A stretch of 64,000 nucleotides of DNA, taken from the NCBI GenBank assembly GCA_008632985.1, contig QPGO01000019.1, forward strand, positions 744,001 through 808,000. The letters are read 5' to 3'. Each line of letters starts with the position of its first letter. Positions within the stretch are counted from its first letter, which is position 1. The DNA comes from Psammoneis japonica. Taxonomy: Eukaryota. The notes beneath the pieces were generated by a model. That model saw only the letters and a program-made list of their open reading frames with translations, was not told the DNA's origin and searched no databases. The translations under genes and the position numbers were made by a program. Positions 1 through 64,000 of the stretch are shown here, one piece after another.

Positions 1-1020
1 TGCGGACGGTGGCATTGAAGTGACAAGCGGCAGTCTTGGCAACTTTGTCCTGTGCTGCGGAAACAACAATTTTTCCAACAGTGCCGTCATGATGGCATTG
101 GCCGTGAGCAAACGGGCCACAGTGGATGACACCGGAGCAACCATTCTTCCTCCTGGTGCTGCTGCCAGAGAGAAAGATGGAACAATGTGTTGCATGCTTT
201 GGTTCCATGCCAACGGCACTGTCAGCTTGGGAAATCTCATCATGCCAGCAACGTCACATCCGATTTGCAAGGTTGGAAGGAAATTGGTTGTTTGGAACTC
301 ATGGGTGGCAGTCACTGTTGAATTGAGGAACCCGGCAGTGTGACAGGAACCAATCAAGAGAATTGTGACATGCGCTGCTTTGTGGCACCCATTTGCAACG
401 CCTGCGACACGGGAGGACTGAACTTTCCTTTCAGCTGGGATTTGGAACGGATGGAGTTCAAAACCTGCTCTTTGATGCGGGTGGCACAATTTTTCCGGGA
501 ACAATGGTTTGTCCCATCAACAGTTGTGATGTGGAAGCCTGTGTGAATTCACACCCTCGTCTTGGAATGGTCACTCACATTTGTCTCAAAGAAACCAAAG
601 TGGTGGATCAGGTGACGGGCCGTGTTTTTTTTGGGAGTGACTTGTCAAAAGGGACCCGATCTTCCATGCCATGCCACCAAGGGACCTCGTCTTTGCGGCT
701 GTTGTGGGAGTCCTTCGGATTCGTTGGAATTTCTTTTGCGCAATTGTGTCTTTCCCAGTGGTGAAGAAGAAGTCACTGGCTCTCCCACGAAACAACCCAC
801 ATCCTCCGCCTCCTTTTTGCCAACTTGGACAATGCATCTCATGGTGGTGACCCTGTTGGTGACTCTCATGTCGGCAAAACAATGACACCACACATCTCTG
901 TTGCAATAAATTCATGGGGATTGCAAAAACTCTCAACAATGAGTCCAGATGAGAAGAGTGCAGTGACCATCCAGATTTGAACGGAGAAACCAGCACAGAG
1001 GTGTTGCATTGCGAAACTGC
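1..1020. other. TpA-depleted degenerate block (origin unidentified)
   Basis: Almost no TA dinucleotides until ~1023, where TA reappears abruptly (aggtagaatg...caggtagtaa agtagagg). ORFs in all frames are Cys/His-rich and nearly Tyr-free. Confidence 0.7.
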
Positions 1021-1387
1021 AGGTAGAATGATGCTGGCAGCAGGTAGTAAAGTAGAGGACGCGATTCACATCATTTGAGATAGCTAATGTGAAGCAGAAG
1101 CTCTGCTCAAGTTGAAAGGAATCGAATGTTGCAACATGGAAACAGTCTTACACAAAACTTTTAACTTGGGCGCGCAGGACCGTTTTGACACTTTTTTTGC
1201 CAATTTTACGAATTTTTATTTTTGATGTGACATTCCGATAAACAACCCAAAAAGACGAAAAATAAAGCGCGCCAAAACGTTGGCCCACATGGACTGCGCA
1301 TTTTTTTTTTCCAACACACATTGAACATCATAACGCAGACACAACACACAACACACAATACAGGCATCAAAAGGTCGACAACACATC

Positions 1388-2452
1388 ATGGGAAAGAAAA
1401 GCCGTCGCAACCGCATCAAGGGCAAGATCAAGTCAGCGGTAAATGTGCCTTTAGCTCAAGAAGAAGACAATCATGAGATCGTGGGCAGCATGCAGGCTGT
1501 GGTCTTGAAATTGCGAGGCGACTTTGTGAAGAACGCTTCGGCCATCATGGTGGAGCTCCTTCGTGCCTTGAACAAGGACACGACTCGTGCCGTTTGGGCG
1601 TTTGTCAAGGCTGGAGGGATTGATGGTATTCTTGTCTTTATGCTAAAGATTCGCAATGACCCACTTTGCATGTGTGTCTGCTGCACGGCTCTTTCTGTAG
1701 TTGCAAATAGCTTGCCCAAAAACGCCTGTGCCGCCGCGATTGCTCAGAGCGGCGGAATACCAACTATTGTTCAAGCTATCCGCCTTGTAATCATGTTTGG
1801 AATTCCAAAGGACATGGAAACGACCTACATGAAATGTATGAGTCGCGGTGTGGGCCTCGTGGGAGAGTTGGCGAATGAAGACGTGACGGCCGTACAACGC
1901 GCTGGTGGCATTGCGGCTATTGTCGAAGTCCTGCAGTATCCTTTTACAGATGAAGAAACGAAAAGGATGATGCATCACAGTGCTGTACACTCGCTAGTCT
2001 CAATCATGATGGCGACAAGAGCTGTTGATCTCCCGAGTGTCCTTGCGGAAACGATCCGTTGCGGTGGAGTTCCCACCCTCGTCCGTTGCCTCAAGCAGTA
2101 TCCCCATGATTTGGATATTCAAGCACCCGGATGCGCCATCATGGCGGTGCTTGCCAATCCACAAGTGGGTGGTAATCCATCTGCAGTCCTTGCTGCAGGA
2201 GCGGACAGTGTCATGGAGATGGCTCTAAAACTGCACAAGGGAAACTACGACATGCAGTCGTACGCAGCGGATGCGCTTTTCTCGTTGAACGAGGTCGTTC
2301 CTCAATGCCAGTGTTGCGGAAAAAAAGCCAAGGATTTGATGGTGTGTTGCCGGTGTGAAATTGCTTGGTATTGCAATAATAATTGCATTTTGAGGGACTG
2401 GGTGAAGCACAAGGAGGCGTGCAACCACGCTCGCTGGAAGCATCGCTACTAA
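1388..2452 (+). CDS. Armadillo-repeat protein with C-terminal MYND zinc finger
   Basis: Single 354-aa ORF. ARM-like motifs (FVKAGGIDGIL, AQSGGIPTIV, RAGGIAAIV, RCGGVPTLV) and C-terminal CQCC...CCRC...YC...C...W..HK..C matching zf-MYND. Confidence 0.85.
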   Translation: MGKKSRRNRIKGKIKSAVNVPLAQEEDNHEIVGSMQAVVLKLRGDFVKNASAIMVELLRALNKDTTRAVWAFVKAGGIDGILVFMLKIRNDPLCMCVCCTALSVVANSLPKNACAAAIAQSGGIPTIVQAIRLVIMFGIPKDMETTYMKCMSRGVGLVGELANEDVTAVQRAGGIAAIVEVLQYPFTDEETKRMMHHSAVHSLVSIMMATRAVDLPSVLAETIRCGGVPTLVRCLKQYPHDLDIQAPGCAIMAVLANPQVGGNPSAVLAAGADSVMEMALKLHKGNYDMQSYAADALFSLNEVVPQCQCCGKKAKDLMVCCRCEIAWYCNNNCILRDWVKHKEACNHARWKHRY

Positions 2453-3329
2453 CCCCCATGCTTGATACCGTTTGTGGAGAAATCCATAATTTTGTGTCGA
2501 CCCTATTTGCTTCGATGTATGTGTTCAAGATCATATAATGCACTCTTTTGTGAATCGTTTCACCTGCTTGGAGCCGGGGAAACGTCACGACAACGTGCAT
2601 GCTTTGGGCTATAGTTTCACTCGCATACGGGCCTTCGTACAAGTGTTTTCGAAAGATTTGTTTCGCTGGCTTGTAGTAGCCGGTAAGACGTTCAGCAGTC
2701 AGGTACCAATATGCATACCATTGAGTGTTGTGGCTATAATATAGAGGTCTCAGTTTTTGTGTCACTTTCAAGAATGTGTTGGTATTTTAAATATCTATAG
2801 CTTGCTGGCTCTGATCGTTGCTGTGTGAGTAAACCTCATACTTTGGATGGAGCACAAGGTGCAGTTGTAGGAAGAAAGCAAGCTACAGGTGGCTGGAGGA
2901 CTTTTTCTAGACGCACGCCGAAACTGGTGAAGAAAGGGACCACTTTCTGACCCCAGTAGGCTGCAAGGGTGTGATTCAGAAAAATAAATTACTGAAGTGC
3001 CGCTGAAAGTCGTTTTCATAGCAGTTGGGAGCTCTCACAGTGCACACTGACATGATCGAATGATCGTTTAGCTAAGAGCAGAGAGAGCTGTACGGTAGTG
3101 TAGCTTCGCCTTTTTCGAGCGAATGAGGGCACGATAAACACCAACCAGCTAGAGTAGCTTCTCTCTACTAGAGTAGAGCTACTCTCTCTAGATAGTAGAG
3201 AGTAGTTAGCAACGAAAGATGGTGCAGTACAAGTACCAACCTTGCATTCTTGTTACAGTATTATCCCTGACCAGGGTTTTCCGGTACCAATGACCACTGA
3301 GGACATTGAAAACATTAAAATGTTGAGGC

Positions 3330-4414
3330 GCTGTGGGATGCCACCGCTCGGATGACGCAAACCCCTTGAATATTCTGACGCAGTTTTTGACCAACATAAC
3401 CGGCACCGTTGTCGTACATAATAACGACAAATCCCGCGACAGCCCTACCCTTTCCCGCGTCCTCCATCGCCTGCCGTGTTTTCACATATCCTGCTAACGG
3501 CTCTTGAGCTTTGTATACACGAAATCAGCAGTGGGGGGCATTTCAGACTCAACTTGCTTCAGTTCCAATGTCACCACACTCGTGTCGGAACTAAATGTGA
3601 CATCTGTCCGCTTTCCGGTCGCTGGCAATTTGCCCTCTTGGCTTGTCCGTGCAATGTCCTGCAGAATGTCATGAGCCTCCGTGACGACGTGAGACTGGAA
3701 TTGAAGCTCCAAGACGTGATCATTGGAGTCTGATGAAGCCCACCCCATGAGTCTTGCCATGTTGCTTTGCGAAATGGAAGTCACAAAGTCCACCAATGTC
3801 TCTTCACCATGGGCACGCAAATCTTCCGCGGACTCCAGTGCAACCAACTTTTCCAACGAAGCTCGCAAGGTCTTCAGAAGGGGTTTGAGCAGGTTCTCGT
3901 GGTGGAACTCAGATGCAATGGTGAAAGCTGGGTTGTCGGTTGATGTCCCCAAGGCTGACACCACACCAACATGAACTGGCAAAGCAAGGTGGTCACTGAT
4001 GTCAATGGTTTCTTGCAAGAGATTCTCCAAACTCAGCTGCTCCTTGATCTCATGTCTTGGTCCTGAAGCTGTCTCCCCATCGGCCAGTTTGTTTGCCACT
4101 GGGCGCAGGTTCCTGCCATTGCACAAGACGTTGAACAGCAATGACGGAACCGGCTCCCATGCCAAACCTCCTGGCACCTTGCCAGTGGATGAGAATTTTT
4201 GTCGTTTCGTTTCCTTTGTTGGATCCAGCAACACATTCATCATGTGATTGACACCTCCGGTGTGAGAGAGAGGCTGACTCTCTGGAAATCGAAGGTCATT
4301 GAAGTTGCGCTTGAGCAAAGTCTTTGCCAGCTCCAGTGCACTCACTGGAAGTGACCCAGCCAGTCCGGCGACCCAATTTGCAAATTGCCCTGGTGTCGGG
4401 GTCATCCAATGCAC
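3330..4414 (-). pseudogene. Degenerate PD-(D/E)XK nuclease-like gene, copy A
   Basis: ORF 3494-4414 ends in GKRTDVTFSSDTSVVTLELKQ (R-x-D...E-x-K nuclease-like motif). It continues after a frameshift as ...QEPLAGYVK...AVAGFVVIMYDNG. His/Cys occupy expected Tyr positions (SEFHH here versus SEFYR in copy B). Confidence 0.55.
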
Positions 4415-4971
4415 ACAGTCAACAACAGGAAAGAAAATGAATGCTTTGTGGTCACAAGAACAAGAAGTCTCTGCTGTGGCCCAAGAATCATTGTTGTTGT
4501 TGTTGTCATCATTTCAGCAGTGGCTTGTTGTTGTTTTGCCATTGTTCCTTTGTTCATCGGCGCGCCACCTTTCTTCCCCCAGCTCCTCTTTCCCATCATT
4601 CCAACGGTCTTCTTTGACAATTGCAAGTAAAGCAGCAGTGACACTTTGTCAACAAGGCACTTTCACAAAGTTGCGGACGTCCATTGTGTCTTTCCCTGCC
4701 TGAGGCAGGCCTGGGCTGGAACCCGGTGACAACAAGACTGTCGACAACCAAAGGAGGTCACCAAGAAGATCTCATGTCATTTGCTTTCTTCACCTGACTT
4801 GGAAGAAGGAGGTGTGAAATGTCTAAATGTTGGAACAAAAAGAGCAGTTGGCAACGAAAGATGGTGCAGTGCAAGCACCAACCTTGCATTCTTGTTGCAG
4901 TGTCATCCCTGACCAGGGTTCTCCGGCACCAATGACCACTGAGGACATTGAAAACATTAAAATGTTGAGGC

Positions 4972-6056
4972 GCTGTGGGATGCCACCGCTCGGATGACGC
5001 AAACCCCTTGAATGTTCTGACGCAGTTTTTGACCAACACAACCGGCACCGTTGTCGTACATGATGACGACAAATCCCGCGACAGCCCTGCCCTTTCCCGC
5101 GTCCTCCATTGCCTGCCGTGTTTTCACACATCCTGCTAACGGCTCTTGAGCTTTGTGTGCACGAAATCAGCAGTGGGGGGCATTTCAGACTCAACTTGCT
5201 TCAGTTCCAATGTCACCACACTCGTGTCGGAACTAAATGTGACATCTGTCCGCTTTCCGGTCGCTGGCAATTTGCCCTCTTGGCTTGTCCGTGCAATGTC
5301 CTGCAGAATGTCATGAGCCTCCGTGACGACGTGAGACTGGAACTGAAGCTCCAAGACGTGATCATTGGAGTCTGATGAAGCCCACCCCATGAGTCTTGCC
5401 ATGTTGCTTTGCGAAATGGAAGTCACAAAGTCCACCAATGTCTCTTCACCATGGGCACGCAAATCTTCCGCGGACTCCAGTGCAACCAACTTTTCCAACG
5501 AAGCTCGCAAGGTCTTCAGAAGGGGTTTGAGCAGGTTCTCGCGGTAGAATTCAGATGCAATGGTGAAAGCTGGGTTGTCGGTTGATGTCCCCAAGGCTGA
5601 CACCACACCAACATGAACTGGCAAAGCAAGGTGGTCACTGATGTCAATGGTTTCTTGCAAGAGATTCTCCAAACTGAGCTGCTCCTTGATCTCATGTCTC
5701 GGTCCTGAAACTGTCTCCCCATCAGCCAGTTTGTTTGCCACTGGGCGCAGGTTCCTGCCATTGCACAAGACGTTGAACAGCAATGATGGAACCGGCTCCC
5801 ATGCCAAACCTCCTGGCACCTTGCCAGTGGATGAGAATTTTTGTCATTTCGTTTCCTTTGTTGGATCCAGCAACACATTCATCATGTGATTGACACCTCC
5901 GGTGTGAGAGAGAGGCTGACTCTCTGGAAATCAAAGGTCATTGAAGTTGCGCTTGAGCGAAGTCTTTGCCAGCTCCAGTGCACTCACTGGAAGTGACCCA
6001 GCCAGTCCGGTGACCCAATTTGCAAATTGCCCTGGTGTCGGGGTCATCCAATGCAC
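4972..6056 (-). pseudogene. Degenerate PD-(D/E)XK nuclease-like gene, copy B
   Basis: Paralog of copy A (ORF 5136-5819), with the same frameshift plus an additional in-frame stop upstream. Confidence 0.55.
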
Positions 6057-7598
6057 ACAGTCAACAACAAGAAAGAAAATGAATGCTTTGTGGTCACAAG
6101 AACGAGAAGTCTCTGCTGTGGCCCAAGAATCATTGTTGTTGTTGTTGTCATCATTTCAGCAGTGGCTTGTTGTTGTTTTGCCATTGTTCCTTTGTTCATC
6201 GGCACGCCACCTTTCTTCCCCCAATTCCTCTTTCCCATCATTCCAACGGTCTTCTTTGACAATTGCAAGTAAAGCAGCAGTGGCACTTTGTCAACAAGGC
6301 ACTTTCACAAAGTTGCGGACGTCCATTGTGTCTTTCCCTGCCTGAGGCAGGCCTGGGCTGGAACCCGGTGACAACAAGACTGTCGACAACCAAAGGAGGT
6401 CACCAAGAAGATCATGTCATTTGCTTTCTTCACCTGACTTGGAAGAAGGAGGTGTGAAATGTCTAAATGTTGGAACAAAAAGGGCTCAGAAATGTGCACC
6501 CGTGGTGGCAACAAATGCATCAAAGTGGAGAAGATGTCACGAAACAACAACAATGTTGGCAACAAGTGTCAAAGTGTCGCTGTTGTTTCACCAGATTCCA
6601 GCAGCAGCAAAAAGCAGTCTCAGTCTCTTTCTCCAACTAAAAGGAAAAAAGAAGTTTTCACTGTCAAAAACCAGACTTGAGCCGGGCTCCATTAAAAACT
6701 GCCAGGTGGCCAGGAAGATGTTTGGAGTCTCGCAGAGGAACTGTGCCAAGATCGTGCAGCACCGGTCGATCATTTTTGGTGTTGGGCAGTGTCATGACTC
6801 AGCAAATTTGGAAGACTCTGTGCCTGGCAGAAATTGTGCATGCTTGAGTCCCACACATTCCTGGCTCTCCATGCTGGAACACCATGTTGAATTTTCAAAT
6901 GATGGGCATGAGCCAAGCCAACAAAGACATTGATGTGTGGATGAGACCATCCTTGACAATGGCTCTGCCCCCAGCACAGCAGCAAGCCAGAGACTGGCAC
7001 ACAATGTGCAACCAGAAAAAACCAAGATTGATCTGTTGAGGAACACAAGAGTGGACACTTCAGATGAAAACTCTGCTGTGCCATGCCTGGATCATGGGGG
7101 ATGCAAAGCTTGGATCACAGAATGACATGGCAAACATCCTCAATTCAATGGATGTGAAGAGCAAGCACTGTGTGACTTGCAACAACCAAGTGGCAGACAA
7201 GTTGCTTCTGACTGCTGGACAAGAAAACTGGCAAGCAAGCAAGCAGCGGCATTCAAAGTGAATGACACTAGACTGCAAACCTTTGCATTGAGCCAGCAGA
7301 AGGTCTTTGAGAGTGACCACACAAAAGATCTCCAAGAAAGTCAGTTGCACATGAGCATGCTGTCAAAAAACAACAAGAAGAAGGGTGAAAAGAAGCACTG
7401 TGGTTCCGACAGTGGAGCAGAATTTGGCCACAGAATCATTTTGATTCTTTTTCTGTTGATTTTACAAATTTTTGTTTTTCATGTGACAAAAAAAGAAAGA
7501 GTGCCAAAATGATGGCCCACATCCACCACGATTGTCATCAACAAGCCCATCAACACAATGCAAATGCACAACACAGCCGCCAAAAGATCAACCACAAA

Positions 7599-8115
7599 AT
7601 GGGAAAGAAAAGTCATCTCAACTGCATCAAAAGCAAGATCAAATTGGCAATGGTGGCAAACAATGTGCCTTTGGCTTGAGAAGAAGATGAGCAGATCATT
7701 GGCTGCATCATGCAGGCTGTGGTCTTAAAACTGCTGGGAGACTTGAGCAATGTGAATGCTCCAGCCATCACGGGGGAGCTCCTTTGTGCTTTCAACAAGG
7801 ACAGCAGCACTTGTGCCATTTGGGCATTTGTTGATGCTGGCTGGGTGCATGTTGACTGCATTCTTGTGTCTGTGTGAAAGATTCACAATGACCCGCCAAG
7901 CACGTGTGTCTGCTGCACAGCTTTTCTTGTGGTTGCCAACACCTTGCTGAGCAGCGCGCCTGTGCTGCCACAGTTGCTCTGAGCAGTTGAGTTTATCTGA
8001 CCATTGTTGGAGCAATCTGCCTCATGATCATGTTTGGAGCTCCTCCAAAGGACATAGAAATGACCTGTGTGAAAAATGCATGGGCAATGGTGCACAAGTT
8101 GCGCAGGTGAGGGAA
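7599..8115 (+). pseudogene. Degenerate, truncated paralog of the ARM-MYND gene (1388-2452)
   Basis: atgggaaagaaaagtcatctcaactgcatcaaaagcaagatc matches atgggaaagaaaagccgtcgcaaccgcatcaagggcaagatc, and catgcaggctgtggtctt is shared. It has a TGA at 7677, indels and TA loss. The flanks are also homologous (7460-7520 to ~1205-1290; 8180-8530 to ~2935-3285). Confidence 0.85.
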
Positions 8116-8704
8116 GAGAAAGCAAGCGCCGCAGGTGTGTGCTGCCCCTTTTTCCAGATGCATTTCACCACTGGTTGAGATTGGGGCCAGTTTCTGACCC
8201 CAGCAGGTTGCAAGGGTGATCACTGCAGTGCAGCTGAAAGTCATCTTTGCAGCAGTTGAGCTGTCATTGGAGCTCTCACAGTGTGTGCCAGCCAAGGACA
8301 TGATCGAACGATCATTTGGCCACAAAGCAGAAAGCTGCATTGCAGCCTGGCTTTGCCTTTTTCGAGCAAATGAGGGCACGATAAAACACCAACAGGCTAG
8401 AGCAGCTTCTCTCTGCTGGTGGAGCTACTCTCTCTAGTGCTCTATTTAGCACGGAACTAATGTGGCACAGGTGCCAACCTTGCATTCTACCGGTGCTGAG
8501 CGAGCTGTCACCTGATCAGGGTTTTCTGGGTTGCAGGCGCCCGCCGCGCGCCTGCGCGCTCACCGCACTGCTCATCTCTTCTCTTTGTTTCATTTCTCTC
8601 GCGTGAAAAACTGCTTCAACGCAAATAGCTTCACTTCTGGGTTCTGGGATTACAGAGCCGCTTTGATCTGTATCTTATCGTGTTGATGCATCACCTTTAG
8701 CAAG

Positions 8705-15830: not shown

Positions 15831-15885
15831 AAAATCTGTGTAATTCAATCAACCTAAAAGGATCACCAGCTGATGCGCATGGGAA

Positions 15886-49689: not shown

Positions 49690-51250
49690 GCTGATGTTTC
49701 AACTGGCACTTGGGTGCTCAAGATCAAGAGGCACCATGATGGATGACTCAAGAAGCTCAATTTACAGTTCTGCACACAAGGTGATCATCAACAATGTGGC
49801 ATTGATTTCCTTGAGACCTGCGCTCCTGTTGTTTGGCACCAGAGTGCAGCTTCTTTGTTGACAAGTCTCTCAAGAAATTTGTGCAGTTTGGCATTTCATC
49901 AAGTTGATTGTGCACTTGCTTTTGCTCAAGCTGACATTGTTGATTGTTGAAGATGTGCGTGTGTGTGTCAAATTTGCCAAAGCCATTTGAGTTTGAGAAA
50001 GAAGGAGAGGACTGCATTTTAAAGCTTGACTCAACAATGGCCTCTCTGTGGACTGCATCAACAGCTGCAATGACTTGGCTCCGACATTCATCCAAGGGCC
50101 CAGACAGATGCAGATTGTCCTCTGGGGCAAGAGCAATCCTTGCCCACTCAATGGCAAAGACATCGTTTGCCTCACACATGTTGATGGTTGTCTGCTCTTC
50201 ATGAAGGACACTGCTGAAATCACCAACAAAATTGTAAATGAGCTCAAGGCAAATGGATGTGAGCTTGATGTCCAAGACAATTGGAGTCGTTCACTGGTGT
50301 TGACATGGGGCCAGGGGAAAAGAGGCTGGGACGACTGCTCATCAAAGAGCCGTGGGTGTGTGCCAGCCACCATGGAATGCTCATCTCTGAGCTTGACTTG
50401 GTGTTCACTTTAACTGGCCAGAGGATCATCATCACATTCCATGCAGGGACACTCAACCGGCAACAACCACTGGCAAATGGCTCTGGCAACACTGACTCAG
50501 TTGTGGCTGCACTTTTAAAGCCGCCAAGTTCAGAAGCACAACATGTCTTAACAGCGCTGGCCATGGTGACCACTGTCTCTGCTGCCACTCCCACTGCTGC
50601 TCCTCTGCTTCTCAGATGTGTCCCAGTGAGCTGTGCTGTCTCCACAAAGCAAGTGTCACCATCCAGCAAACAGCTGCCTTGATGGGGCATCTCTTCTGAC
50701 CTTGAGGCACCGGGGTGACTCATTCCCCAATCCACCAAACTTTGGTTTGCACCAGTCCATCTGACTGCCCATGCTGCAAACATTGCTGGCTGCCTCCAAA
50801 GTGAGCACAATGTTTGGCAAACCACACCATCCAAACTTGGCAAGTTTGGACCTCAGCAGTCCAACGCATGCATGCTCTCCAGGCTCAACTCCAGCAGAGT
50901 GACCCACTTGTTGTGGTTGTTCCAAAACAACATTTTCTGCCATCAAGCAGTTCCTCTCAAATTGCTTTGCAGATGGGGGTTAAAAATGGCTGCATCATGG
51001 AAAGAGCAGGCACCGCACCACTCAAGAATGGCAAGAGCCTCAAAAACAAGCAGAGACTTTCTTGTGGTGGAGATTCTCCAGCCACAAAAAGTCTTTCATC
51101 ATTGAAAACAAAAATGACTTTTTTGTGATGATGCACTGCGCTGCAACTTCGAAAGTGTCTGAGACCAACATCATGGAAAATGACTTCTCAAGACACAACA
51201 GTTTTGCACCCCACCTCTGTTTTCTCTTTGTTGCTTCTTGCTGGGTGGGG
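49690..51250 (+). mobile_element. Ty1/copia LTR retrotransposon relic (RT-RNase H)
   Basis: Decayed copia RT motifs: TWVLKIKRHHDG*LKKL...QGDHQ, QVDCALAFAQAD, SLCGLHQ (SLYGL.Q) and IVCLTHVDGCLLF (YVDD). RNase H-like IAGC...SKL and terminal LLLAGW. Confidence 0.85.
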
Positions 51251-51400
51251 GCAAAGTCAAAGTGTCAGAGGACAGCACACCGCCTCAGATGTGAGCACAA
51301 TGCCTCATTTTTGGCTCTGGTTGGGGCTCAATTCTCTCTTTTTGATGCTGCTGACATGGCTCCATGCATTGCACAGCGGATTTTTGTTTCATGTAAAAGA

Positions 51401-51847
51401 GAGTGCAATGTGCAGCTGCTGGCAAGAGTCAGCGCATCACGGCGACGTGTTGCAGCCTTTAAATGTCACAAAGGGCATGACAAAACAACCTTTTGTCTGC
51501 ATGCATGCTGCGTTGTGAATTCACAGCGGAGTGGTTCATCGCAACCATCAGGCAGGAGGCCAGGGGTTCGAAACCCTGAGTGGGAGTTGTCTGCAGCAAC
51601 GTTGATCACTGTCGAACGCGTAAAACTCTGTGCAGTTCTGCATGTTCCTTCGTGCGTACCCACACTGTTCCGCCAAAACCGTGCAGTGTCAGTGCACGTT
51701 GGCAAAGAGCCGTGTGGACGCGTGATGCATGGGGAGGAGTGCAACACACAGCTGCCAACAAGAGTCAATGTGTCACGGCGACGTGTTACAGCCTTTAAAT
51801 GTCACAAAGGGCGTGACAAAATAACCTTTTGTCTGCATGCATGCTGC
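51401..51847. repeat. Two ~110-bp direct repeats (51401-51511, 51737-51847)
   Basis: Shared cacggcgacgtgtt.cagcctttaaatgtcacaaaggg..tgacaaaa.aaccttttgtctgcatgcatgctgc. Lies downstream of the copia relic, possibly LTR-derived. Confidence 0.85.
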
Positions 51848-55553: not shown

Positions 55554-56353
55554 CATGCTCAAGTGTCCGGGCAATCCGCTCAAACGCGCAACAGCGCGAT
55601 TTCAGCGGAAATGAGCGGACCTTTGTCCTCTACCTTAAGGCGGGTCAGTCGCTACTTTTTTTAGCTTGAATTCGGTCGAACAGCTCGTGTTTTGCATGAT
55701 TTTTCCTGAATTTCACCGTGCTTCACCGTGGTGAAAACAACAAGCCATAAGTCTGTGACGGAGGTGGTCCGTCCACCAACTCTCATTTGTTTTGTGTTTG
55801 TTGTTTGTCAAAGATTGTGCATGCATGAAAAGTTGATAGGCGGCACGCTGCGTTTTTGAGAAACATCGATGATTGTCATCATCGTCGTGCTTCGATCGCG
55901 GTGTTGATGGTTCTCGTTTTGTGCGCGATCGGGTGTGACTGTGAACAACTCTTGTGTTCAAAAACAAGCACCAGAAAAATCTCATTCAAGTGCAACTGCA
56001 ATTCCAGGACAAACGCGGGGGTGACCCACCTCAAGCAGTTTTTAATGCTCAGGACTAAAAAGCAATGGAGACCAGGACATTAAAAAAACGGGTGACAGCG
56101 CGCATGCGCAGAAAAATTCACAAAATTCCGATTCAAACACACCTGCCAACCGTCACCTCCATGACCATCAGTTTGTTGCGTCCGTCCCATCCCGGTTTTC
56201 TGCATTGTTGCTGCATGACTCATCAGAACCCCATTTCATCCATCATGGGCACAAACGCTGCTGATCACTGATGTGTCACGTTCTCGAGAAAGAAGGAATG
56301 TCGTTTGATGACTCATGCACCATTTTGCGGTAAAGAGTGACGGTGCACGGTGC

Positions 56354-56745
56354 GACGTGTTCCAGCTCTGGGTGGGACCTCGCACCACTGAACTGTGACA
56401 TCGACAGTTTTTTGGATCGCACCACATGTGTCGCGCACGCAGAAAGGTGCGTGACTTTTCTGAAATTTTGTGTCATTTTGTGGTGCACTTGTTGAGCGAT
56501 CCGTCCAACAACTTTTGACATTTTTTTTTACAGCGCGATTCTTAAATGTCTTGAGAATCGCGCAGGGCAGGCGCACCTGCAAAAACGTCAAGCGGCAATG
56601 GTCACAATTGTGCCACAAACCTGGTTGTTCATTTGATGTTGAAGACAAAAATGTCCATCAATTGGATTCTTGTAATGCGGAGCTCGCAAGCAGAATTCTA
56701 CGGGCCCAATGTCACAAAAAGTCCCACCCAGGACTGGAACCCATC
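56354..56745. mobile_element. MITE copy 2 (392 bp), 4-bp TSD GTGC
   Basis: Collinear with 30830-31219; gtgc at 56350-56353 and 56746-56749. Confidence 0.92.
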
Positions 56746-56954
56746 GTGCACGGTGCGTGGCAGGGACGACTCATTTTGTTGCATGTTGACGCTCAACTGG
56801 CTTGTCTCGGAAATGTGGCAATCATGTCAGTGGCTCATGCCATCAGGAAGAGGCAGCAGCGTGCCGGCAAGTGGCAACCATGTGCCTTGTTGCGTGCCAG
56901 CAGTTCTGTGTCTGCACTTGATCGACTGACACCTGATTTGTCTTTTGCTTGTAA

Positions 56955-58271
56955 GATTTGTTTTCATCCCAGGTGAGAAACGCGCGTGCGGAGGTGAGAC
57001 GTTTCGTCTGTCCCTTTTCCGTCGCCGTGCTTTTTGTGCGAGCAAATCTGACTGGACTTTCCCCCGATTTTTCGTTTCTTCTTTCCACAGACATGTTTGT
57101 TTTGAAAAGCCAGCCGTCATTCTCATTGGTTGAAGGGTGCGCACAAGAAAAGCGCTGTCTCGAAAGCGGCATTTTTTGGAGTGAAACTGACAGCTGTCTG
57201 CTCATTGTTGTCACTCTGGTGCATTTGAGAGACTGTTCCACTGTTTCTTTCACCGAATCTGACTGCTTTGAAAGAATGTGCGCATTGTTCATTGCACAAA
57301 GAGCTCATGCCAAAAAAGAACGGCGTTCCAACACTGTTGTTTGCATGAGAAAAATCGGGGGAACTGACTTCGCACGTGATTTTTTTGTGCGATCGGCCAT
57401 TTCAAAGATCGACTGATTTGTCGACCTGTGTGGGACACTTGAGTGAATAAAACAATGGGGTTGAAATGGCAGCGTCAAAGTTCAATGTGTGTCCAGTTGT
57501 CATGTGATTTGATGTGCCCAAGCAGAGTTAAAGATGAAACATTGACAAAATTTCACCGCTCAAAATGACTGGTTCCATCTTAGAATAAAATAAAATGGCT
57601 GCAACACTGAGATGTTGCTAATGGCATTGTTCCACTTTACAATGATGAAACTGTCACACTTGCATCTGAGATTCTTTGTCCTCACACACCCTCAAAACCG
57701 AGCACATGACGATTCTCTTGTCGGCAGCGAAATCTGATGTTGTCGCGCGACCCAAAAGCGTCGTCCATGACGACTCAAAGTGTGGACAACACATCACAAG
57801 AATCACAGCAACGTGTCACAGAAACATTCTTCGTTGTCAGCATCCGGTGTCAAGTGGATGGAGCAGCGCGTTGATGAGAATCCCACTTCGCAAGCTGAGG
57901 AAGAGAGAAAGAGGCATCAAAAACATCATGAGTCAAAAGGCCATCCACAAGGCACAACAAAAAACAAAGATCAAATTTTCAACCACATCATCGCATTGAG
58001 CGTTGTCTCATTGACCTGTCTCGGCATTCTTGCCTTCTCAGTCACAACATCCGTTGGTGTGAGAATGGACGAGTTCATGGCGACGGCATGGTGCCATTTT
58101 CGGTTTGTGCGAATTGTGGTTTGTGGTTCGAGACATGGAAAAATATATTTTTACTGTCATGGAGCTCGTTTTTTACTAAGATTTTTGGTGCCAAATGCAC
58201 GTCTCATGTAGAAACACGTGGAAAACCTCGTGATGTGTCAAAAAGTTTCTCACCCAGGATGAAAACACATC
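56955..58271. mobile_element. Non-autonomous DNA transposon (1317 bp), ~27-bp TIRs, 4-bp TSD GTAA
   Basis: Left gatttgttttcatcccaggtgagaaac; right gtttctcacccaggatgaaaacacatc; gtaa at 56951-56954 and 58272-58275. Confidence 0.85.
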
Positions 58272-58411: not shown

Positions 58412-58811
58412 GACGCGTTCCAGCCCTAGGTGGCTGGGAGCTCGTAGCACTGACGTGTGACACAAATAATTTTTATCATCCGTCATGTGTTTCGCACGTA
58501 GCTTTCTACGTGTGACATTTAAAAAAAATTGTCCAGACTCGCTGTTTTGCGAAGCCCCAGACGTTTTATATAATAAATTTATAGAAACAAAGATGCGCCA
58601 GTTACATTCTTCAATGTCTGAAGAATGTAACTGGCTAAGTAAAAAATGATGTACTTCAATCATGGGCGAGTTTGTGCGTTCGCAAAATTGTCTCATTTTC
58701 TGTTGACGATCATTGACATTTTAATTGCCGCATGGTTTTACTACGGAGCTCGCACGTAGAAGTCTACGGGCCCAATGTCACACGGATTCCCACCTGCATT
58801 TGGAACACGTC
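58412..58811. mobile_element. MITE copy 3 (400 bp, divergent subfamily), 4-bp TSD GAGA
   Basis: gacgcgttccagccctaggtgg...cccacctgcatttggaacacgtc. Shares ggagctcgcacgtagaa.tctacgggcccaatgtcac with copies 1 and 2. gaga at 58408-58411 and 58812-58815. Confidence 0.88.
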
Positions 58812-58815
58812 GAGA

Positions 58816-60400
58816 CCACACTTGGCAGTTCCGACAGTGTTGACAACAGCGCACTACTCGGTGCAGATGATGGAGTCATGGGCGGCACATGTGACGGTAC
58901 ATCACTTGGCATTGCGGATGGCACATGTGACGGCACAGAAGGTGCATTTTGACGGAACTGCTGACAGTGTTGTGGATGGCATGTCACTTGGTTCAAACAA
59001 TGGATTTGTCAATGGTGCATGTGGTGCATGACTAAGAAATGATCTGGGAACCGTCAAAGGTGTTTCTGATGGCACGTCGCTCTGTGCATCAGATGGAACT
59101 GTCAACGGCACACAGGTGGCGGTGGGCGCATTGGCAGATGGCAGAACAGGTGGTGTTGGGTGCGGCGTGCTAGACGGCGTTGGACGTGTTGCACTGGCAG
59201 ATGCAGACGCAGGCGGCAATGGGCGTGGAGCACTAGACGGCATTGGACGTGTTGCACTGGTGGATGGCAGAATGGGTGGCATTGGGTGCGGCGTGCTAGA
59301 CGGCGTTGGACGCGTTGCAACAGCAGATGGTGGCGCAGGCGGCTTTTGGCGTGGAGCTCTGGACGGCATTGGACGTGTTGCACTGGTGGATGGCAGAATG
59401 GGTGGCATTGGGTGCGGCGTGCTAGACGGCATTGGATGTGTTGCACTGGTGGATGGTGGCGCAGGCGGCGATGGGCGTGGAGCACTGGTGGATGGCATTG
59501 GATGCGTTGCACTGGCAGATGGTGGTGCAGGCGGTGATGGGCGTGGAGCTCTAGACGGCATTGGACGTGTTGCACTGGTGGATGGCAGAATGGGTGGCAT
59601 TGGGTGTGGCGTGCTAGACGGTGTTGGACGTGTTGCACCAGTGGATGGTGGCGCAGGCGGCGATGGGCGTGGAGCACCAGTGGATGGCAGAATGGGTGGC
59701 ATTCGGTGTGGCGTGCTGGACGGCGTTGGACATGTTGCACTGGCAGATGGTGGCGATTGGCATGGCGCAGACGGTGTTGGATGTGTTGTAACGCAACAAT
59801 GAAACACCCCCTGGCAGATGGTGGCAATGGGCATGGCGCAGATGGCATTGGACATGTTGCATGTGCACAGAATTAGCTTCACATCAGCTTCATGTTGCAG
59901 TGGCCCCTGGAATTGTTGAGTGCGTCGGAATTGAATGTGTGATTGCACTGGTGGGAGCGTGGGGTGCCGGTGGCATCATGTTCTTGTTTTGGTTGCGTCT
60001 TGTGCATGAGGCAAATGCATTGGAGCTGGCGAGGAAACACAAACGCGACAAGAATGCAATGCGTGCAGAATTGTCAAGTGCGCATGGAATTGAATGCGGG
60101 GCTGTGCAGGTGGGAGCGTGGGCTGCCAGCACAGTGGCATCATGCCGGTGTTCTTGTTTCAATTGCATCTTGTGCAAGGCAAATGCACTGGAGCTGGTGA
60201 GGAAACACAACAATGCAATGCCCCTGGGATTGTCGAGTGCGCATGGAGTTGAATGCGTGCTTGTGCCGGTGGGAGCATGAGCTGCCAGCACAGCAGCATC
60301 ACACTCTTGTTGCGATTGCGTCTTGCACGAGGCAAAAGTGCTGGAGTGCAACAGACCCACAGAAGCAGTCAATTTTAAACCGGCAAAAAACATTCCAAAG
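58816..60400 (-). pseudogene. Decayed mucin-like Pro/Ser/Thr repeat gene with ~60/120-bp and ~165-bp tandem units
   Basis: ORF 58902-59948 of PTPSSTPHPMPPILPST repeats and PSDVPS-type repeats; three ~165-bp units at ~59905-60350; TA-depleted. Confidence 0.55.
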
Positions 60401-60921
60401 ACAATGCAGAACAGCAGTGGATGGAACTGCATTGTCAAACAATGTGTGATTGGTTGATGGACAATCGCGTCAAAACCGCATTGTTGCACCACCAACTTAA
60501 AAAGTCTAGCACATTTCATTTGCACTCTGGTGTCAACTGCTTCCATCTGAAAATCGTCCATGCCAGATGCAACCGAGTTCTTGTCATCTGTGCCATTGAG
60601 CAAGCGCAAGTGTGGCATCAAGGTCAACTCGAGTGCCGACGTGGAACGAGCACATGACACATGGCTTGCCTTTGGGTTCCAGACTGATTTTGTGCACAAT
60701 CCTTCAATGTAAATGTGTGACATCAATGACTGCTTCTTTACACTGGCAATGAAGGAGTTGTTTTGATCTTGTTGTCTCTGACAACCTTGTCAACTGCCTT
60801 TCTCGCAACTGCTTGATGTTGTGGGCTCTTCAGATGTCTTGTGTCTTTTTCGATTTTTCGCGCACGTGGCGCACTGTCACCCGTTTTTTTCAATGTCCTG
60901 GTCTCCATTCAGTCTTGCCTT

Positions 60922-61006
60922 TGCTGCATTTTTCAGCAAATGCTGAAATGCAGCATGTTTCAGCAAATGCTGAAACCTGCCATGTTTCAACAGAAAATGC
61001 TGAAAC
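60922..61006. repeat. Three short palindromic units TTTCAGCA-AA-TGCTGAAA
   Basis: Units at 60931-60948, 60958-60975 and a variant at 60985-61005. The first extends to a longer hairpin, 60922-60955. Confidence 0.8.
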
Positions 61007-61199
61007 ACGCAAAGTCATTGGCTTTCGAGTGATCCGTGAGATTTGGCATGGAGAGACTTGTTTTCTGGAGTGCGAACTTGCATTTTTGGAGATGACGCAG
61101 CACTGGCCCACACTCCACCTTGTTTGAGCCATTCTTCATTGTTTTTGAGGCCCTTGGTTTGGTGAGAAATGGAGTTGTCATTGTGTGTGGATCAAAACA

Positions 61200-63760
61200 T
61201 GGGTCTTTTTGCTGTTGTCTCTTTGCCTTTTTGTTGAGCGGCAAAAGGCAAAACCCACGCTTTGACCTCATTTGTTCAGCTCACAACAGCACATTTGATG
61301 ATGCCCATTGATGGCATCAACTCAACACAACCACAAAAAGTTTCCCCTGTCTTGGCTGTGCTGTGTGTTTGTTCTGTGGCAAGAAACACTGTGCACTGCC
61401 ACGTTGACAGGAAACACCTCAAGATGGAAATTTGTCATGAACCAAACTTTCATGTTTGTTTGTTCAATGCACCTCCTCTCATGCCTGCCTCCCAGTGATG
61501 TCATCTCTTCATTGTGGACGCAAAAAGCATCCCCCATCTAACGCATGGCTGTGTGTTTAATTTGTGGCAAGAAATGTCTGTCACACTTGTGTGGTCTCAC
61601 ACCAGCCATTTGTGGTTGTTGCTGACCCATGCTTTGATGTTCATTCATTCATTTCATCTTCTCACTGACACTTCTTGGATCTCCAATCTCTTCTTCATGG
61701 CTGTGAAAGAACTGCAATGCCTTGCACTTGCTTTTTGTGGGGTCTGTGCAGCATGGAGCAAACCATGAGCACTTTGCTCTCATCCAGGATGAGTTGCAGC
61801 TGAGCAGCACCGGTGTGATGCATGATGCCACCAATGAAAACAAGGAAGTGATGGCACCCAGATGACAGAAGCCTTTGCTTGGTGTCGCCGCTCTGTTTCA
61901 TGGCTTGATCAGAAAAAGGACCATGTTCTTGTCACCATTGCATGCAACATCAACCACAAAATTCTGCATCAGAAATCAGAGCAGCTGTCTCTCCAACAAG
62001 CAGCAGAAAATTGGTCTTGCATTTGTCAACAGAAGCCCCAGCACCTGGGAGCATTGATCCTCAAAAGTTGCACATCAAGTGCCCTTGCTGACAACTCAGT
62101 GTCCAAAGCCATCTCTGGTCAAGTTCCTTTGCTTGCAATGCAGGAAGTTGTCAATCACTGCCTTGGCATGCATGCAAAACAGTTGGAATGGTTTCTTCCA
62201 CATCTCTTCCAACACCCCAGATGGTCATTTGTCGCTGTTGGTTCCATTTTTGTGGCACTCCCCATGCAAAATTTGCGTTGTTCTTCATTGCTGTGACCTC
62301 CTCCTTGAATGCTTCTTTTGTTGTCTCAGCCATTTCCTTGGGACATGCTCTGTGACAACCAATGTCCAATCTTGGAACCAACGCCAATTGACACTTGGCT
62401 CATTGAACAAAAATTGCCCCAGCCACATGCTTTTCCCTTGCTGTCTTCTTCTCCAGTTGGCATTTTGCTTGGTGCAAAAAAACATTCACTGAAAGAATCT
62501 TGGGAACAAACACTGCCAACCCCCATTTGCACACTTCTTCCAAGCCACCAACTCTTTTTTTTGCAAGTGCCTCTTCTGAATTTTCGGTGCTTTCCCACCA
62601 ACTCTTGTCAGCAACTGCTGCGCTGCCCTGTTTCTTTTTCTTTCCATTCCTCTTGCCAAGGTTTTGACTCTGCATCCTTTTTTGTTTGATCATCTTCTTC
62701 CTTCTGATTTCCTTCATTTCCTCATTCGGCAACCATGTGTTGTCATCTTCTCCTTTGTCATCATCCACAAAAAGGGGTGAATCCACCACCCTTCTTCTTG
62801 CTTCTGCCTTGTGTTCTGCTTTTGCTCCACCACACATCCAGCGCAGCTTGGCTCTGTCCACACCATGTGGCTGCTTTGCAAAACACTTTCTGCATTTCCA
62901 AATCTTTCTTTCATCCTTTTCAGTGCTGCTTGCTGTCACACTCTTCACATCAACTCCTTTCTTGAGTGCATTTTCCATTCTCTTTGCTTGCAATTTGGCT
63001 CTCAACTTCTTCCTCTTTGATGCCAGCTCTTGCCAATGTTGACACATCTTGAGTTTTGCTCTTGCGTGCTTTGACATTTGCTTTGGATTGAACACATGCA
63101 ACACAAGCTGCACTCCAAACACAAGAAGCTTGTTAAATTTCTCTGCACACATTTGAACTCTGTCATGCACCAACCCTGTGTCATTCTAAATGGGGTGCAG
63201 CAAAATGGGCACTGCCAAAATTGGTGCTGATTGGACCATCTTCATTTCTTTCCTCACACTCTCTTTCTTTTGCTCTTTTTTCAACCTCTCAATTTCTTTC
63301 TCATTTTTTCTTTTTTCCCTTCCTTTTTTCTCACACTCTCCTTCCCCTCATCTAATCTTTCCCTGTTGCTTGCCATTGCACTGTCATCAGATGCATTCAT
63401 TTGCTTTTGAGACACTTCGCAAATCACTCCAAACTTCCCTCCATCAAATTCATTCGCACACGTGTCATGTTCATTCTGATTGACACCCCCACCCTTGCTG
63501 CTTGGACATCTTTTCTGCACGGCTCATGTTTGAGCATCCCCTTTCCCTTCAACTTTCTTCTTTTCAGCTCTTGTCCTTGTCAACTTTGCCATTTCTTCAC
63601 AAAACACGTGCATTTTCTCATGTCACCTCCACTTTTGCGCATTTTTGCTGACCCCATCAATGTCTTTTTTCACCACATCACCATGATTTTGCCATTCGCA
63701 GCCCATGTTTGCAGGGTGCATTTCTTCTCACGACACCTCTCACCTCCTCCTCGCCTCTAT
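61200..63760 (-). pseudogene. Long degenerate reading frame with Lys/Glu-rich region (unidentified, possibly transposon-derived)
   Basis: K/E/R-rich minus-strand ORFs (62400-63173, 63281-63520); near-complete TA loss; no recognisable catalytic motif. Confidence 0.35.
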
Positions 63761-64000
63761 CTATCTCACCTTCTTCCCCTCTGCAGCGCAGCCGCCCAGC
63801 ACCCAAGCACCACCTCCCCTCCTTCCGAGGGATGGGCGTTCAGTTAGTCTGCGCGCACTTGCTTGATGTGTGAGCCACACGCCACCAACTGCAGTGCACT
63901 GCAGTGCTGCCGCACGACATACAGACCATAATCGGGTCCATCGCCGCGCCGGCGCCGGCCGCCGCCAACAGTACTGTACATATTCGAATATTGTAGATAA

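Follow-up and report, generated by a model that had tools for sequence, protein, structure and literature searches.

Probable TpA-specific hypermutation of non-functional DNA in sharply bounded domains of a pennate diatom genome

In the pennate diatom Psammoneis japonica, a 64-kb stretch of contig QPGO01000019.1—the whole of the DNA analysed, called hereafter the window—contains seven sharply bounded domains where the dinucleotide TpA has nearly disappeared in favor of TpG and CpA. We attribute this, with a probability of about 0.8, to a hypermutation of non-functional DNA producing transitions specifically at TpA. The signature, its specificity and its restriction to domains are directly observed, and the same letters are present in sequencing reads; they reflect an active TA-specific transition process rather than a passive compositional state. 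A comparable footprint has so far been reported only in an unrelated alga.

Results

TA-poor blocks were delimited by a two-state HMM run on the TA positions of the window. The seven blocks represent 24,003 bp, i.e. 37.5% of the window; they are listed together with the island between blocks 6 and 7 and an array in block 7, none of these being assigned a strand:

1..1023, TA-poor block 1: 1 TA, CG o/e 0.52; cut by the window start
3517..8381, TA-poor block 2: 17 TA, o/e 0.05, CG o/e 0.41
23595..27661, TA-poor block 3: 9 TA, o/e 0.03, CG o/e 0.12
30483..33423, TA-poor block 4: 27 TA, o/e 0.14; internal repeats
48153..51786, TA-poor block 5: 12 TA, o/e 0.05, CG o/e 0.24
55663..58143, TA-poor block 6: 18 TA, o/e 0.10, CG o/e 0.92
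58144-58765, normal-TA island of 622 bp, separating blocks 6 and 7
58766..63757, TA-poor block 7: 21 TA, o/e 0.07, CG o/e 0.46
59128-59689, G+C-rich tandem array inside block 7

An earlier sequence-only reading had recognized six blocks, whose coordinates agree with those of the HMM except that the sixth is really two blocks split by the 622-bp island. It had also described them as lacking TA, rich in TG/CA and often reduced in CG, which the pooled values bear out: 107 TAs are found within the blocks (o/e 0.07) and 1652 outside (0.60), CG o/e is 0.44 vs 0.96, and TG and CA reach 1.70 and 1.73 in the blocks vs 1.16 and 1.20 outside (for the whole window: TA 0.41, TG 1.36, CA 1.40, CG 0.76). G+C is nearly equal (0.49 in blocks, 0.47 outside), and AT, AA and TT are not depleted in the blocks, AA/TT o/e being there 1.30 and 1.24 vs 1.17 and 1.16 outside. 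Both strands are similarly concerned, the blocks counting 2633 TG and 2513 CA.

The same reading hinged on the TA content not being unimodal. Over the 128 bins of 500 bp of the window the TA o/e is bimodal, with 31 bins below 0.1, only 4 at 0.2–0.3 and a further peak at 0.5–0.6 (24 bins). TA-free gaps of at least 500 bp occur 14 times in the window, the longest reaching 1576 bp (geometric P ~1e-16), while among the 16 dinucleotides, all checked, such gaps were otherwise found for CG (2) and CC (1) and for none of the remaining 13. The block edges are step-like, with a transition within at most 100 bp. Per bin, TA o/e correlates negatively with TG/CA o/e (Spearman -0.79) and positively with CG o/e (+0.62). 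CG o/e is 0.12–0.52 in five of the seven blocks; on the other hand the CpG content of block 4 is near normal up to ~32500 and very low beyond. The two losses can be told apart, as two TA-poor stretches, 30483-32500 and 55663-58143, have a CpG content close to normal.

The direction and the specificity of the changes can be read from duplicated DNA, of which block 2 and its left neighbourhood offer two cases:

3199..6485, no strand, tandem duplication of a 1647-bp unit (3199-4845 and 4841-6485), copies 97.6% identical
1388..2452, plus strand, intact ORF with Armadillo repeat and MYND finger (Arm/MYND), in normal-TA DNA; source paralogue of 7553-8074
7553..8488, plus strand, old copy of 1339-3250 (Arm/MYND gene and downstream DNA), ~70% identical, internally deleted

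Copy 1 of the tandem starts outside block 2, where its initial 318 bp have kept their TAs, whereas the same stretch of copy 2 is inside the block. In these 318 columns 16 of the 19 TAs are converted in copy 2 and none of the 19 in copy 1; ten of the conversions gave TG and six CA, interleaved along the flank. Apart from TA the flank differs at 2 columns only, one of them at a CpG, so that of its 18 differences 16 are at TA. The core, of 1328 columns, differs at 10 of 44 CpGs and shows 12 other differences, and the background between the copies amounts to 13 other differences in 1646 columns. The old Arm/MYND copy behaves alike when compared with its normal counterpart 1339-3250, which is itself unconverted: from 35 aligned TAs 24 became TG/CA and 5 are still TA, and from 37 aligned CGs 24 became TG/CA and 4 are still CG. 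Inside the blocks, 56354-56745 (block 6) and 30830-31219 (block 4) share a common repeat, 88% identical. Between within-block repeats, TG-versus-CA double mismatches make up 6/13, 6/9 and 4/7 of the adjacent double differences, as would result from a separate conversion of each copy in place. Most of the block sequence is found only once in the window.

Three gene remnants were identified in the blocks: the Arm/MYND copy, a methyltransferase-like gene and a gene of the AAA-ATPase_like (PF09820) family, the latter two as follows:

3360..4336, minus strand, AAA-ATPase_like pseudogene copy 1 (diatom family), truncated and frameshifted, corresponding to residues 162-486 of P0121
5002..5978, minus strand, AAA-ATPase_like pseudogene copy 2, two in-frame stops, wholly inside block 2
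23333..24631, minus strand, pseudogene of a conserved family with a C-terminal methyltransferase-like domain, in three frames with two in-frame stops

The block edges 3517 and 23595 fall inside AAA-ATPase_like copy 1 and the methyltransferase-like pseudogene respectively. In copy 1, none of the 4 Tyr of P0121 is kept in the TA-poor part, whereas the 3 of the C-terminus, outside the block, are all kept; summed over 14 homologues, a given window codon then entering several times, this gives 0/65 and 26/26. In copy 2 two C-terminal Tyr became Cys. Relative to its homologues, the methyltransferase-like pseudogene, whose family consists of conserved proteins of roughly 400-750 aa, has Cys in place of Tyr and of Arg, as well as frameshifts.

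These alignments agree with the ORF composition in supporting the idea, already put forward, that TA loss erases Tyr codons and TAA/TAG stops. For stop-to-stop ORFs of at least 80 aa, Tyr represents 0.2% of residues in the blocks vs 2.4% outside, Cys 5.7% vs 3.2% and His 4.8% vs 3.2%; per kb, the blocks have 2.2 TAA and 1.1 TAG, compared with 9.4 and 8.6 outside. The ORFs are thus Cys/His-rich and Tyr-poor as claimed, and the claim holds qualitatively, but their excess is modest (~1.4-fold: 146 in blocks or 6.1 per kb, 173 outside or 4.3 per kb). None of the 146 block ORFs has a Pfam domain above cut-off, viral and transposon domains included; broken copies only lie inside, and all recognizable intact genes lie outside the blocks, as had been stated. 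The presence in the blocks of conserved, though broken, gene remnants had been overlooked.

The footprint is also found in other data. Run X1 yields a Logan contig of 6951 nt, at word depth 63, that spans 23489-30400, and hence the whole of block 3, with 3 differing letters and no gap, although this run may be the same data the assembly was built from. Provided that X1 consists of accurate short reads, to which its word depth points, this suggests that the footprint is real at the DNA level and argues against a base-calling artefact. In metagenomes, two contigs from other diatom-like organisms, L001 and L002 (TA o/e 0.1-0.5), carry an open ORF of the AAA-ATPase_like family with 0.6% Tyr, in which Cys or His stands opposite 8 of the 12 Tyr of P0121 aligned with L001 and 7 of the 10 aligned with L002; the end of a third contig, L003, has no TA across 588 bp. 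The copy in L001 is an open, Tyr-poor frame of 690 aa, the type of frame a gene caller would report, in line with the warning that spurious proteins would be over-called in such DNA. L001 and L002, from two metagenomes and 99.5% identical, differ at 10 sites, 4 of which oppose TA to TG/CA, a hint that the change might be ongoing.

Discussion

We propose that, within these domains, the A of TpA on either strand would be replaced by G, giving TG or CA, and that a converted site would no longer be a target. Conversion would go near to completion, several hundred times faster than background substitution, a ratio that rests on the paralogue divergence of one duplicate pair and not on per-generation counts. 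Most blocks would in addition undergo a slower decay of CpG to TpG/CpA, as expected of cytosine-methylated DNA; the composition would be TG/CA-rich because both routes, from TA and from CG, end in TG/CA. CpG is depleted in 5 of the 7 blocks, and 10 of 44 CpGs differ between the tandem copies; the depletion gives an indirect hint of methylation. The process would keep to domains defined by position rather than by sequence element, and would affect pseudogenes, old segmental duplicates and repeats; we infer, as the earlier reading did, that the TA-poor domains would be silent chromatin. For the chemistry our tentative choice, somewhat short of even odds, is that an enzyme deaminates the adenine of TpA, the mechanism put forward for Bigelowiella natans; a candidate ADAT2-like DNA adenine deaminase counts among the features of that type of process.

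One may ask whether a process acting on DNA is needed at all. A long-read base caller misreading modified bases (5mC, modified T or A) as transitions, in a true sequence keeping TA and CG, would also yield transitions at palindromic dinucleotides, grouped in domains as modification-induced miscalls are, and neither the assembly nor run X1 comes with a recorded sequencing platform. We nevertheless consider this very improbable: noisy long reads would not give a 31-mer contig matching 6.9 kb with 3 differences, the blocks also bear the frameshifts, indels and transversions of old pseudogenes, the same signature appears in metagenome contigs of other projects, and the B. natans process was measured by Illumina reads (10.64898/2026.01.13.699255). 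That no special process occurred, old junk DNA merely drifting under methylation-driven CpG decay, ordinary mutation bias or GC-biased gene conversion, is hardly credible. Eukaryotic genomes generally under-represent TA, TA o/e is 0.60 even in normal DNA here, and CpG decay is indeed present; but drift accounts neither for 16 of 18 differences falling at TA in 318 columns of a 97.6% identical duplicate nor for a bimodal TA o/e with step-like edges, and GC-biased conversion would not leave AT, AA and TT undepleted and G+C unchanged. Selection against TA, acting on genes that work without it and protecting them, for instance, from transposons or nucleases that target TA, could invoke some long open frames in the blocks and the still open family copy of L001. 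Its probability is practically negligible, considering that the identifiable block genes are truncated, frameshifted or stop-bearing, that Tyr is replaced at otherwise conserved positions, and that no block ORF passes the Pfam cut-off.

More serious is the question of how TpA-specific mutation is made and triggered. The same footprint might come from another chemistry than adenine deamination: thymine oxidation at TpA—a TET/JBP-type enzyme making 5-hydroxymethyl- or 5-formyl-uracil, which then mispairs with G—or error-prone repair synthesis, or a biased repair of T:G mismatches in methylated DNA. A change of T to C on either strand explains TA to CA and TA to TG equally well, dinoflagellate 5-hydroxymethyluracil prefers TpA, polymerase eta errs at WA motifs, and the parallel loss of TA and CpG fits a repair provoked by 5mC deamination. 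However the two blocks that are TA-poor with normal CpG indicate that CpG deamination is not required, and the undepleted AA/TT do not bear the signature of a WA-motif polymerase; on balance we judge these chemistries unlikely, with still an appreciable share of the probability. We find it improbable that the TA-specific mutation is set off by sequence duplication, in a manner similar to the repeat-induced point mutation (RIP) of fungi, rather than by a positional chromatin domain. In favor of this trigger, much of the identifiable block DNA is duplicated (the 1647-bp units, the 1339-3250 copy, the repeats of blocks 4 and 6), and DNMT4, a relative of the fungal RIP enzymes, is reported as widespread in diatoms (PMC9998398). 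Yet the 318-bp flank was converted in copy 2 only, the source copy was spared, the edges cross pseudogenes rather than tracking repeat ends, and most block sequence is single-copy, a comparison limited to the window.

Fungal RIP, in ascomycetes, changes C to T at CpA and thus creates TpA; it is triggered by repeats and affects both copies. The diatom process resembles it as a dinucleotide-specific transition hypermutation wrecking non-functional or duplicated DNA in distinct domains, with functional genes outside. Unlike RIP, it destroys TpA instead of gaining it, and spares both the flank of copy 1 and the source 1339-3250. ADAR, which edits A to I in double-stranded RNA with a preference for a 5' U and leaves an imprint on retroelements, shares with our data the change of A to G after T (U). 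We rejected it: such an imprint would favor one strand and concern retrotranscribed elements only, whereas here TG and CA are balanced and interleaved, in genomic duplicates converted in place. The CG to TG/CA changes of most blocks recall the CpG depletion of methylated transposons; for Phaeodactylum tricornutum, the methylation of transposable elements is described as depending on DNMT5a (PMC9998398). Such decay explains the CpG part only, TA loss being faster and occurring without CpG loss in two blocks.

For the chlorarachniophyte B. natans, a 2026 preprint describes a TpA-only hypermutation of integrated giant-virus and virophage DNA: A/T to G/C changes at TpA, measured in mutation-accumulation lines, nearly always consist of A to G or T to C transitions and occur in particular regions at ~1000 times the background; the long-term footprint is a clustered TpA depletion with CpA/TpG enrichment, with a Rho of 0.45 in a virus region and 124 clusters genome-wide (10.64898/2026.01.13.699255). 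By analogy, the diatom footprint seems to come from a process of this kind, in a further lineage. Mutations likewise hit TpA and yield TpG/CpA (16 of 18 flank differences, 24 of 35 aligned TAs relative to the normal paralogue), and they are regional and far above background (16/19 inside, 0/19 outside), although here inferred from paralogues and not in real time. On the other hand B. natans is a rhizarian and our organism a stramenopile diatom, a group without mention in the available text of the preprint; the diatom blocks, which cover 37.5% of a gene-dense window with a TA o/e of 0.07, are close to saturation when compared with the Rho of 0.45; and most of them are also CpG-depleted, unlike in B. 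natans. The identifiable targets appear to be host-type pseudogenes and duplicates here, and are viruses there: judging from the Pfam search of the 146 block ORFs, the targeting of foreign DNA proposed for B. natans is not evident in this window.

Diatoms, and perhaps the whole stramenopile-alveolate-rhizarian group, might then possess a chromatin-targeted DNA editing that erases TpA from any DNA lying in a silent domain, be it viral, repeated or a redundant host copy, an extension that we hold as possible rather than probable. If true, such editing would defend the genome by mutation, as RIP does in fungi but with the opposite chemistry; in this diatom roughly one third of a gene-dense region would have been converted, and TpA o/e alone would provide a map of long-term silent chromatin at base-pair resolution. 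The context of the surviving sites would then be a fingerprint of the putative enzyme: among the TAs left in the blocks ATAT and ATAC are almost absent, while TTAA, CTAA and CTAG remain.

TA-poor blocks

In this stretch of the Psammoneis japonica genome, TA has been lost through TpA-specific, strand-symmetric and domain-restricted A:T to G:C transitions, which struck the DNA in situ and were accompanied by CpG decay. The whole window holds 1763 TA (observed/expected ratio, o/e, 0.41) and an excess of TG (1.36) and CA (1.40). A two-state HMM run on TA positions delimits seven TA-poor blocks, which sum to 24,003 bp, i.e. 37.5% of the window.

TA-poor blocks delimited by the HMM
1-1023: block 1
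3517-8381: block 2
23595-27661: block 3
30483-33423: block 4
48153-51786: block 5
55663-58143: block 6
58766-63757: block 7

These coordinates agree with the blocks proposed in a sequence-only reading of this DNA, except that its last block is in fact two, separated by a normal island of 622 bp. The pooled TA o/e is 0.07 in blocks (107 sites) against 0.60 outside (1652 sites), that of CG 0.44 against 0.96, and those of TG and CA 1.70 and 1.73 against 1.16 and 1.20; G+C scarcely differs. The same reading had named a unimodal TpA distribution as the outcome contrary to its mosaic. Within the window, the TA o/e of 500-bp bins (n = 128) is bimodal: 31 bins fall under 0.1 and 4 at 0.2–0.3, and the second mode stands at 0.5–0.6. 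Fourteen gaps of at least 500 bp separate consecutive TAs, the longest of 1576 bp (geometric P ~1e-16); such gaps number two for CG, one for CC and none for the remaining 13 dinucleotides, so that many long gaps are found for TA only. Block edges are step-like: TA o/e is 0.07–0.09 at 50–600 bp inside and 0.6–0.8 at 50–400 bp outside.

The six-frame translation of the blocks differs from that of the outside DNA in Tyr (0.2% versus 2.4%), Cys (5.7% versus 3.2%) and His (4.8% versus 3.2%); TAA and TAG are scarce, and stop-to-stop ORFs of at least 80 aa are 1.4 times as dense per kb as outside. The Tyr-free, Cys/His-rich ORFs pointed out in the sequence-only reading are confirmed qualitatively. 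Two stretches, 30483-32500 and 55663-58143, are TA-poor with a normal CpG content, which indicates that TA loss is independent of CpG loss; it is probably the faster or the earlier event.

Conversions read from paralogous copies

The sharpest evidence that this is a mutational footprint is the tandem duplication 3199-4845 / 4841-6485 (97.6% identity by self-comparison), which straddles the left edge of block 2. For its first 318 columns copy 1 lies outside the block and copy 2 within: copy 2 has 16 of the 19 TAs converted (10 to TG and 6 to CA, interleaved), copy 1 none of the 19, and there are only two other differences, one of them at a CpG. Along the 1328-column core, where both copies were TA-poor already, 10 of 44 CpGs differ, besides 12 other differences. 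From these counts, the events per site over the same time span would be ~1.9 for TA, ~0.1 for CpG and ~0.004 for other sites; TA conversion would thus outpace background roughly several hundred times and CpG decay more than ten times.

Self-comparison also shows that 7553-8074 and 8087-8488, in block 2, form a copy, ~70% identical and with an internal deletion, of 1339-1834 and 2847-3250, a region of normal TA which contains an intact gene with Arm and MYND domains. Opposite the 35 aligned TAs of the normal copy stand 24 TG/CA and 5 TAs kept; opposite its 37 aligned CGs, 24 TG/CA and 4 CGs kept. Three further repeat pairs have both copies in blocks.

Within-block repeat pairs
30830-31219 / 56354-56745
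30558-30824 / 31492-31758
51401-51511 / 51737-51847

They differ mostly by TG-versus-CA double mismatches and by TA or CG versus TG/CA, a pattern to be expected from separate conversion of each copy in place. TG and CA are moreover equally frequent in every block, therefore the process affects both strands of genomic DNA, and not an edited RNA that is later reverse-transcribed.

We scored 105 block TAs in their four-base context relative to normal DNA. TTAA (5.6-fold), CTAA/TTAG (2.6-fold) and CTAG (2.3-fold) are over-represented among the survivors; ATAT, 7.4% of normal TAs, is absent from blocks and ATAC/GTAT, 14.8% of normal TAs, is present once. If this bias reflects an enzyme preference, the target A converted most rapidly would have a purine at -2 and a pyrimidine at +1.

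Block contents and pseudogenes

None of the 146 block ORFs reaches the Pfam cut-off, and no viral or transposon domain appears among them; below threshold there are two chance matches only, Zn_ribbon_PriA and DUF6155. Scans for tRNA and Rfam families across the window gave no match, and tblastx of blocks against the window gave no paralogy additional to that of blastn. Protein comparison identifies two families. ORF 3497-4513 (-) matches 14 proteins of the diatom PF09820 (AAA-ATPase_like) family, with up to 78% identity. ORF 23330-24211 (-) has matches in 359 representatives of another family (best E 8.5e-64), whose listed members have mainly 400-750 aa and whose C-terminal domain is methyltransferase-like.

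Pseudogenes in TA-poor DNA
4336-3360 (-): AAA-ATPase_like copy 1, truncated, frameshift at 3518 (tblastn)
5978-5002 (-): AAA-ATPase_like copy 2, truncated, two in-frame stops (tblastn)
24631-23333 (-): methyltransferase-like, three frames, two stops

In the TA-poor part of AAA-ATPase_like copy 1, none of the four Tyr of a reference homologue (P0121) is kept, the codons reading S, H, H and R, against 3 of 3 in the last 53 codons, outside the block; at two of these three C-terminal positions copy 2 has Cys. Summed over the 14 homologues—the same codons being re-counted—Tyr is kept at 0/65 positions in the TA-poor part versus 26/26 outside. In the methyltransferase-like pseudogene, Cys replaces Tyr at some positions and Arg at others. 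Block edges fall inside the AAA-ATPase_like (3517) and the methyltransferase-like (23595) pseudogenes; as both cross an edge, the TA-poor state follows position and not the boundaries of inserted elements, and the insertion of DNA that was TA-free beforehand is rejected. The three identifiable remnants, i.e. these two and the Arm/MYND copy, look like host-type genes.

By contrast with the blocks, normal-TA DNA carries large ORFs with ordinary eukaryotic domains: Arm + MYND, SAP + PADR1, alpha-L-fucosidase, sulfatase, fn3 + thioredoxin-like, WAP, WD40, lipase_3 and peptidase M64. The best match of the fucosidase is a contig protein at 67% identity. Among the named proteins listed, its full-length matches come from pennate diatoms, namely Seminavis, Nitzschia, Mayamaea and a Bacillariaceae MAG (53-56% identity); three higher-ranked named ones are animal proteins of 735-816 aa (46-53%). 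The genome is accordingly that of a pennate diatom, one not represented in the protein collection searched.

Normal-TA ORFs without a Pfam domain
39933-42902 (+): 989 aa
45917-47953 (-): 678 aa
36071-37279 (-): 402 aa
54227-55051 (-): 274 aa

For the 989-aa ORF an Atlas search gave weak leads only (score 0.80), to WLS-like or TMEM181 transmembrane proteins.

The same signature in metagenome contigs

A scan of metagenome contigs with the AAA-ATPase_like family gave three loci only, from diatom-like organisms, so that the evidence from other species is thin.

AAA-ATPase_like loci
L001:37-2106
L002:2415-4370
L003:370-2271

L001 and L002 are one locus from two metagenomes (99.5% identity; 75-76% to the window copy). 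Their TA o/e is 0.1-0.5 and their TG/CA ~1.5, and 4 of their 10 differences oppose TA to TG/CA. The ORF is uninterrupted over 690 aa in L001 and over 652 aa in L002, where it reaches the contig end, and contains only 0.5-0.6% Tyr; Cys or His replaces 8 of 12 aligned P0121 Tyr in L001 and 7 of 10 in L002. L003 has a normal copy (11 of 12 Tyr kept), and the final 588 bp of this contig hold no TA. The signature is thus not peculiar to this assembly. The 690-aa frame also bears out an earlier prediction about gene callers, since a converted copy can remain a long, Tyr-poor open frame. When nine block ORFs and a normal-TA one were sought as exact matches in a protein collection, 0 of 10 were present, a result uninformative on gene-caller output.

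The AAA-ATPase_like family recurs in diatom-like contigs and is TA-converted in two of three distinct places, the window tandem pair and the L001/L002 locus, L003 being normal; it may be part of an element, either mobile or foreign, that draws conversion.

Origin of the TA loss

A long-read base-caller might miscall modified DNA, and transitions at CG and TA confined to domains are what such DNA could yield. However, the blocks also bear frameshifts, indels and transversions, which modification would not create, and a read-derived contig of sequencing run X1 repeats block 3 almost letter for letter: 6951 nt long, with a mean word depth of 63, it spans 23489-30400, hence the sulfatase gene and block 3 in its entirety, gap-free and differing at 3 letters. 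A depth of this order, counted in exact 31-mers, suggests that the reads are accurate, X1 being possibly the assembly's own source. X1 contains 91% of the words sampled from 21001-30400; contigs of run X2 cover parts of that interval only, run X3 gave none, and no RNA run is listed for the interval. GC-biased gene conversion is rejected, as AT, AA and TT are not depleted in blocks. A RIP-like trigger by duplication is less likely, given that the source copy of the Arm/MYND region and one copy of the duplicated flank are both untouched. Fungal RIP itself is alike as a genome-wrecking transition process, but its dinucleotide outcome is opposite to that of the window, which therefore does not belong with it.

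As to the chemistry of the TpA conversion, our first choice, at slightly less than even odds, would be a deamination of adenine to hypoxanthine in TpA context, such as has been suggested for Bigelowiella natans. The alternatives are a biased repair, or an oxidation of thymine with subsequent mispairing; in dinoflagellates, 5-hydroxymethyluracil favours TpA. The TA-poor domains could plausibly be putative long-term silent chromatin, often cytosine-methylated; in diatoms, methylation of transposable elements via DNMT5a has been described (PMC9998398).

Relation to known systems

The one earlier account of a TpA-specific, region-targeted hypermutation found so far is a 2026 preprint on the chlorarachniophyte B. 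natans (10.64898/2026.01.13.699255). In two integrated viral regions of mutation-accumulation lines, 230 of 231 single-nucleotide mutations were A to G or T to C, placed on TpA, at ~6e-7 per site per generation versus 3.5e-10 elsewhere; the genome has 124 clusters depleted in TpA and enriched in CpA+TpG, and an ADAT2-like candidate is put forward for adenine deamination. Diatoms and stramenopiles go unmentioned in this preprint. Literature searches with and without the term diatom, their coverage excluding most subscription journals, gave no paper on TpA-hypermutation in diatoms. The feature is real and is best filed as TpA-hypermutation of the B. natans type, new for diatoms. It differs from that case by a near-complete saturation, by targets that look like host-type pseudogenes, by very sharp block edges and in that CpG decay often accompanies it.

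Such a process may be widespread among diatoms, which are major marine primary producers. It would strike host gene duplicates besides foreign DNA, and its footprint is mappable from sequence alone. Gene finders would output long false proteins, Tyr-free and Cys/His-rich, from TA-poor blocks, and screens for foreign-DNA composition as well as mutation-rate estimates in such genomes must allow for these blocks. A natural DNA process with an A to G outcome in TpA context is, besides, a lead for an enzyme search.

Other features of the window

A second version of 21001-24632, ~10-15% different and with small indels, occurs in read-derived contigs of X1 and X2, while 24769-29478 is found in a single one (word depth 63); this resembles either a second haplotype of very high divergence or a segment that is hemizygous.

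A TA-rich, partly palindromic, microsatellite-like motif, CTAGAGTAG / CTACTCTCTCTAG, lies at 3149-3200, 8396-8440, 23268-23275 and 30013-30060. All four occurrences of CTCTCTAG, two of them paralogous, are within ~450 bp outside some block edge. As many read-derived contigs stop in loose ends at 30012-30058, copies of the motif are probably dispersed over the genome. A boundary element and a transposon end are possible readings, and so is coincidence. At the right edge of block 2, 8382-8440 is a short zone of partial conversion; in the old copy of 3149-3200, some GTAG/CTAC became GCAG/CTGC and others have TA still.

Finally, 59128-59689 is a tandem array (G+C ~0.59, strong GC skew, periods of 63, 126 and 192 bp) with several open frames, the minus strand encoding a Pro/Ser/Thr-rich repeat; it has few TAs left, every one in a conserved CTAGAC context.
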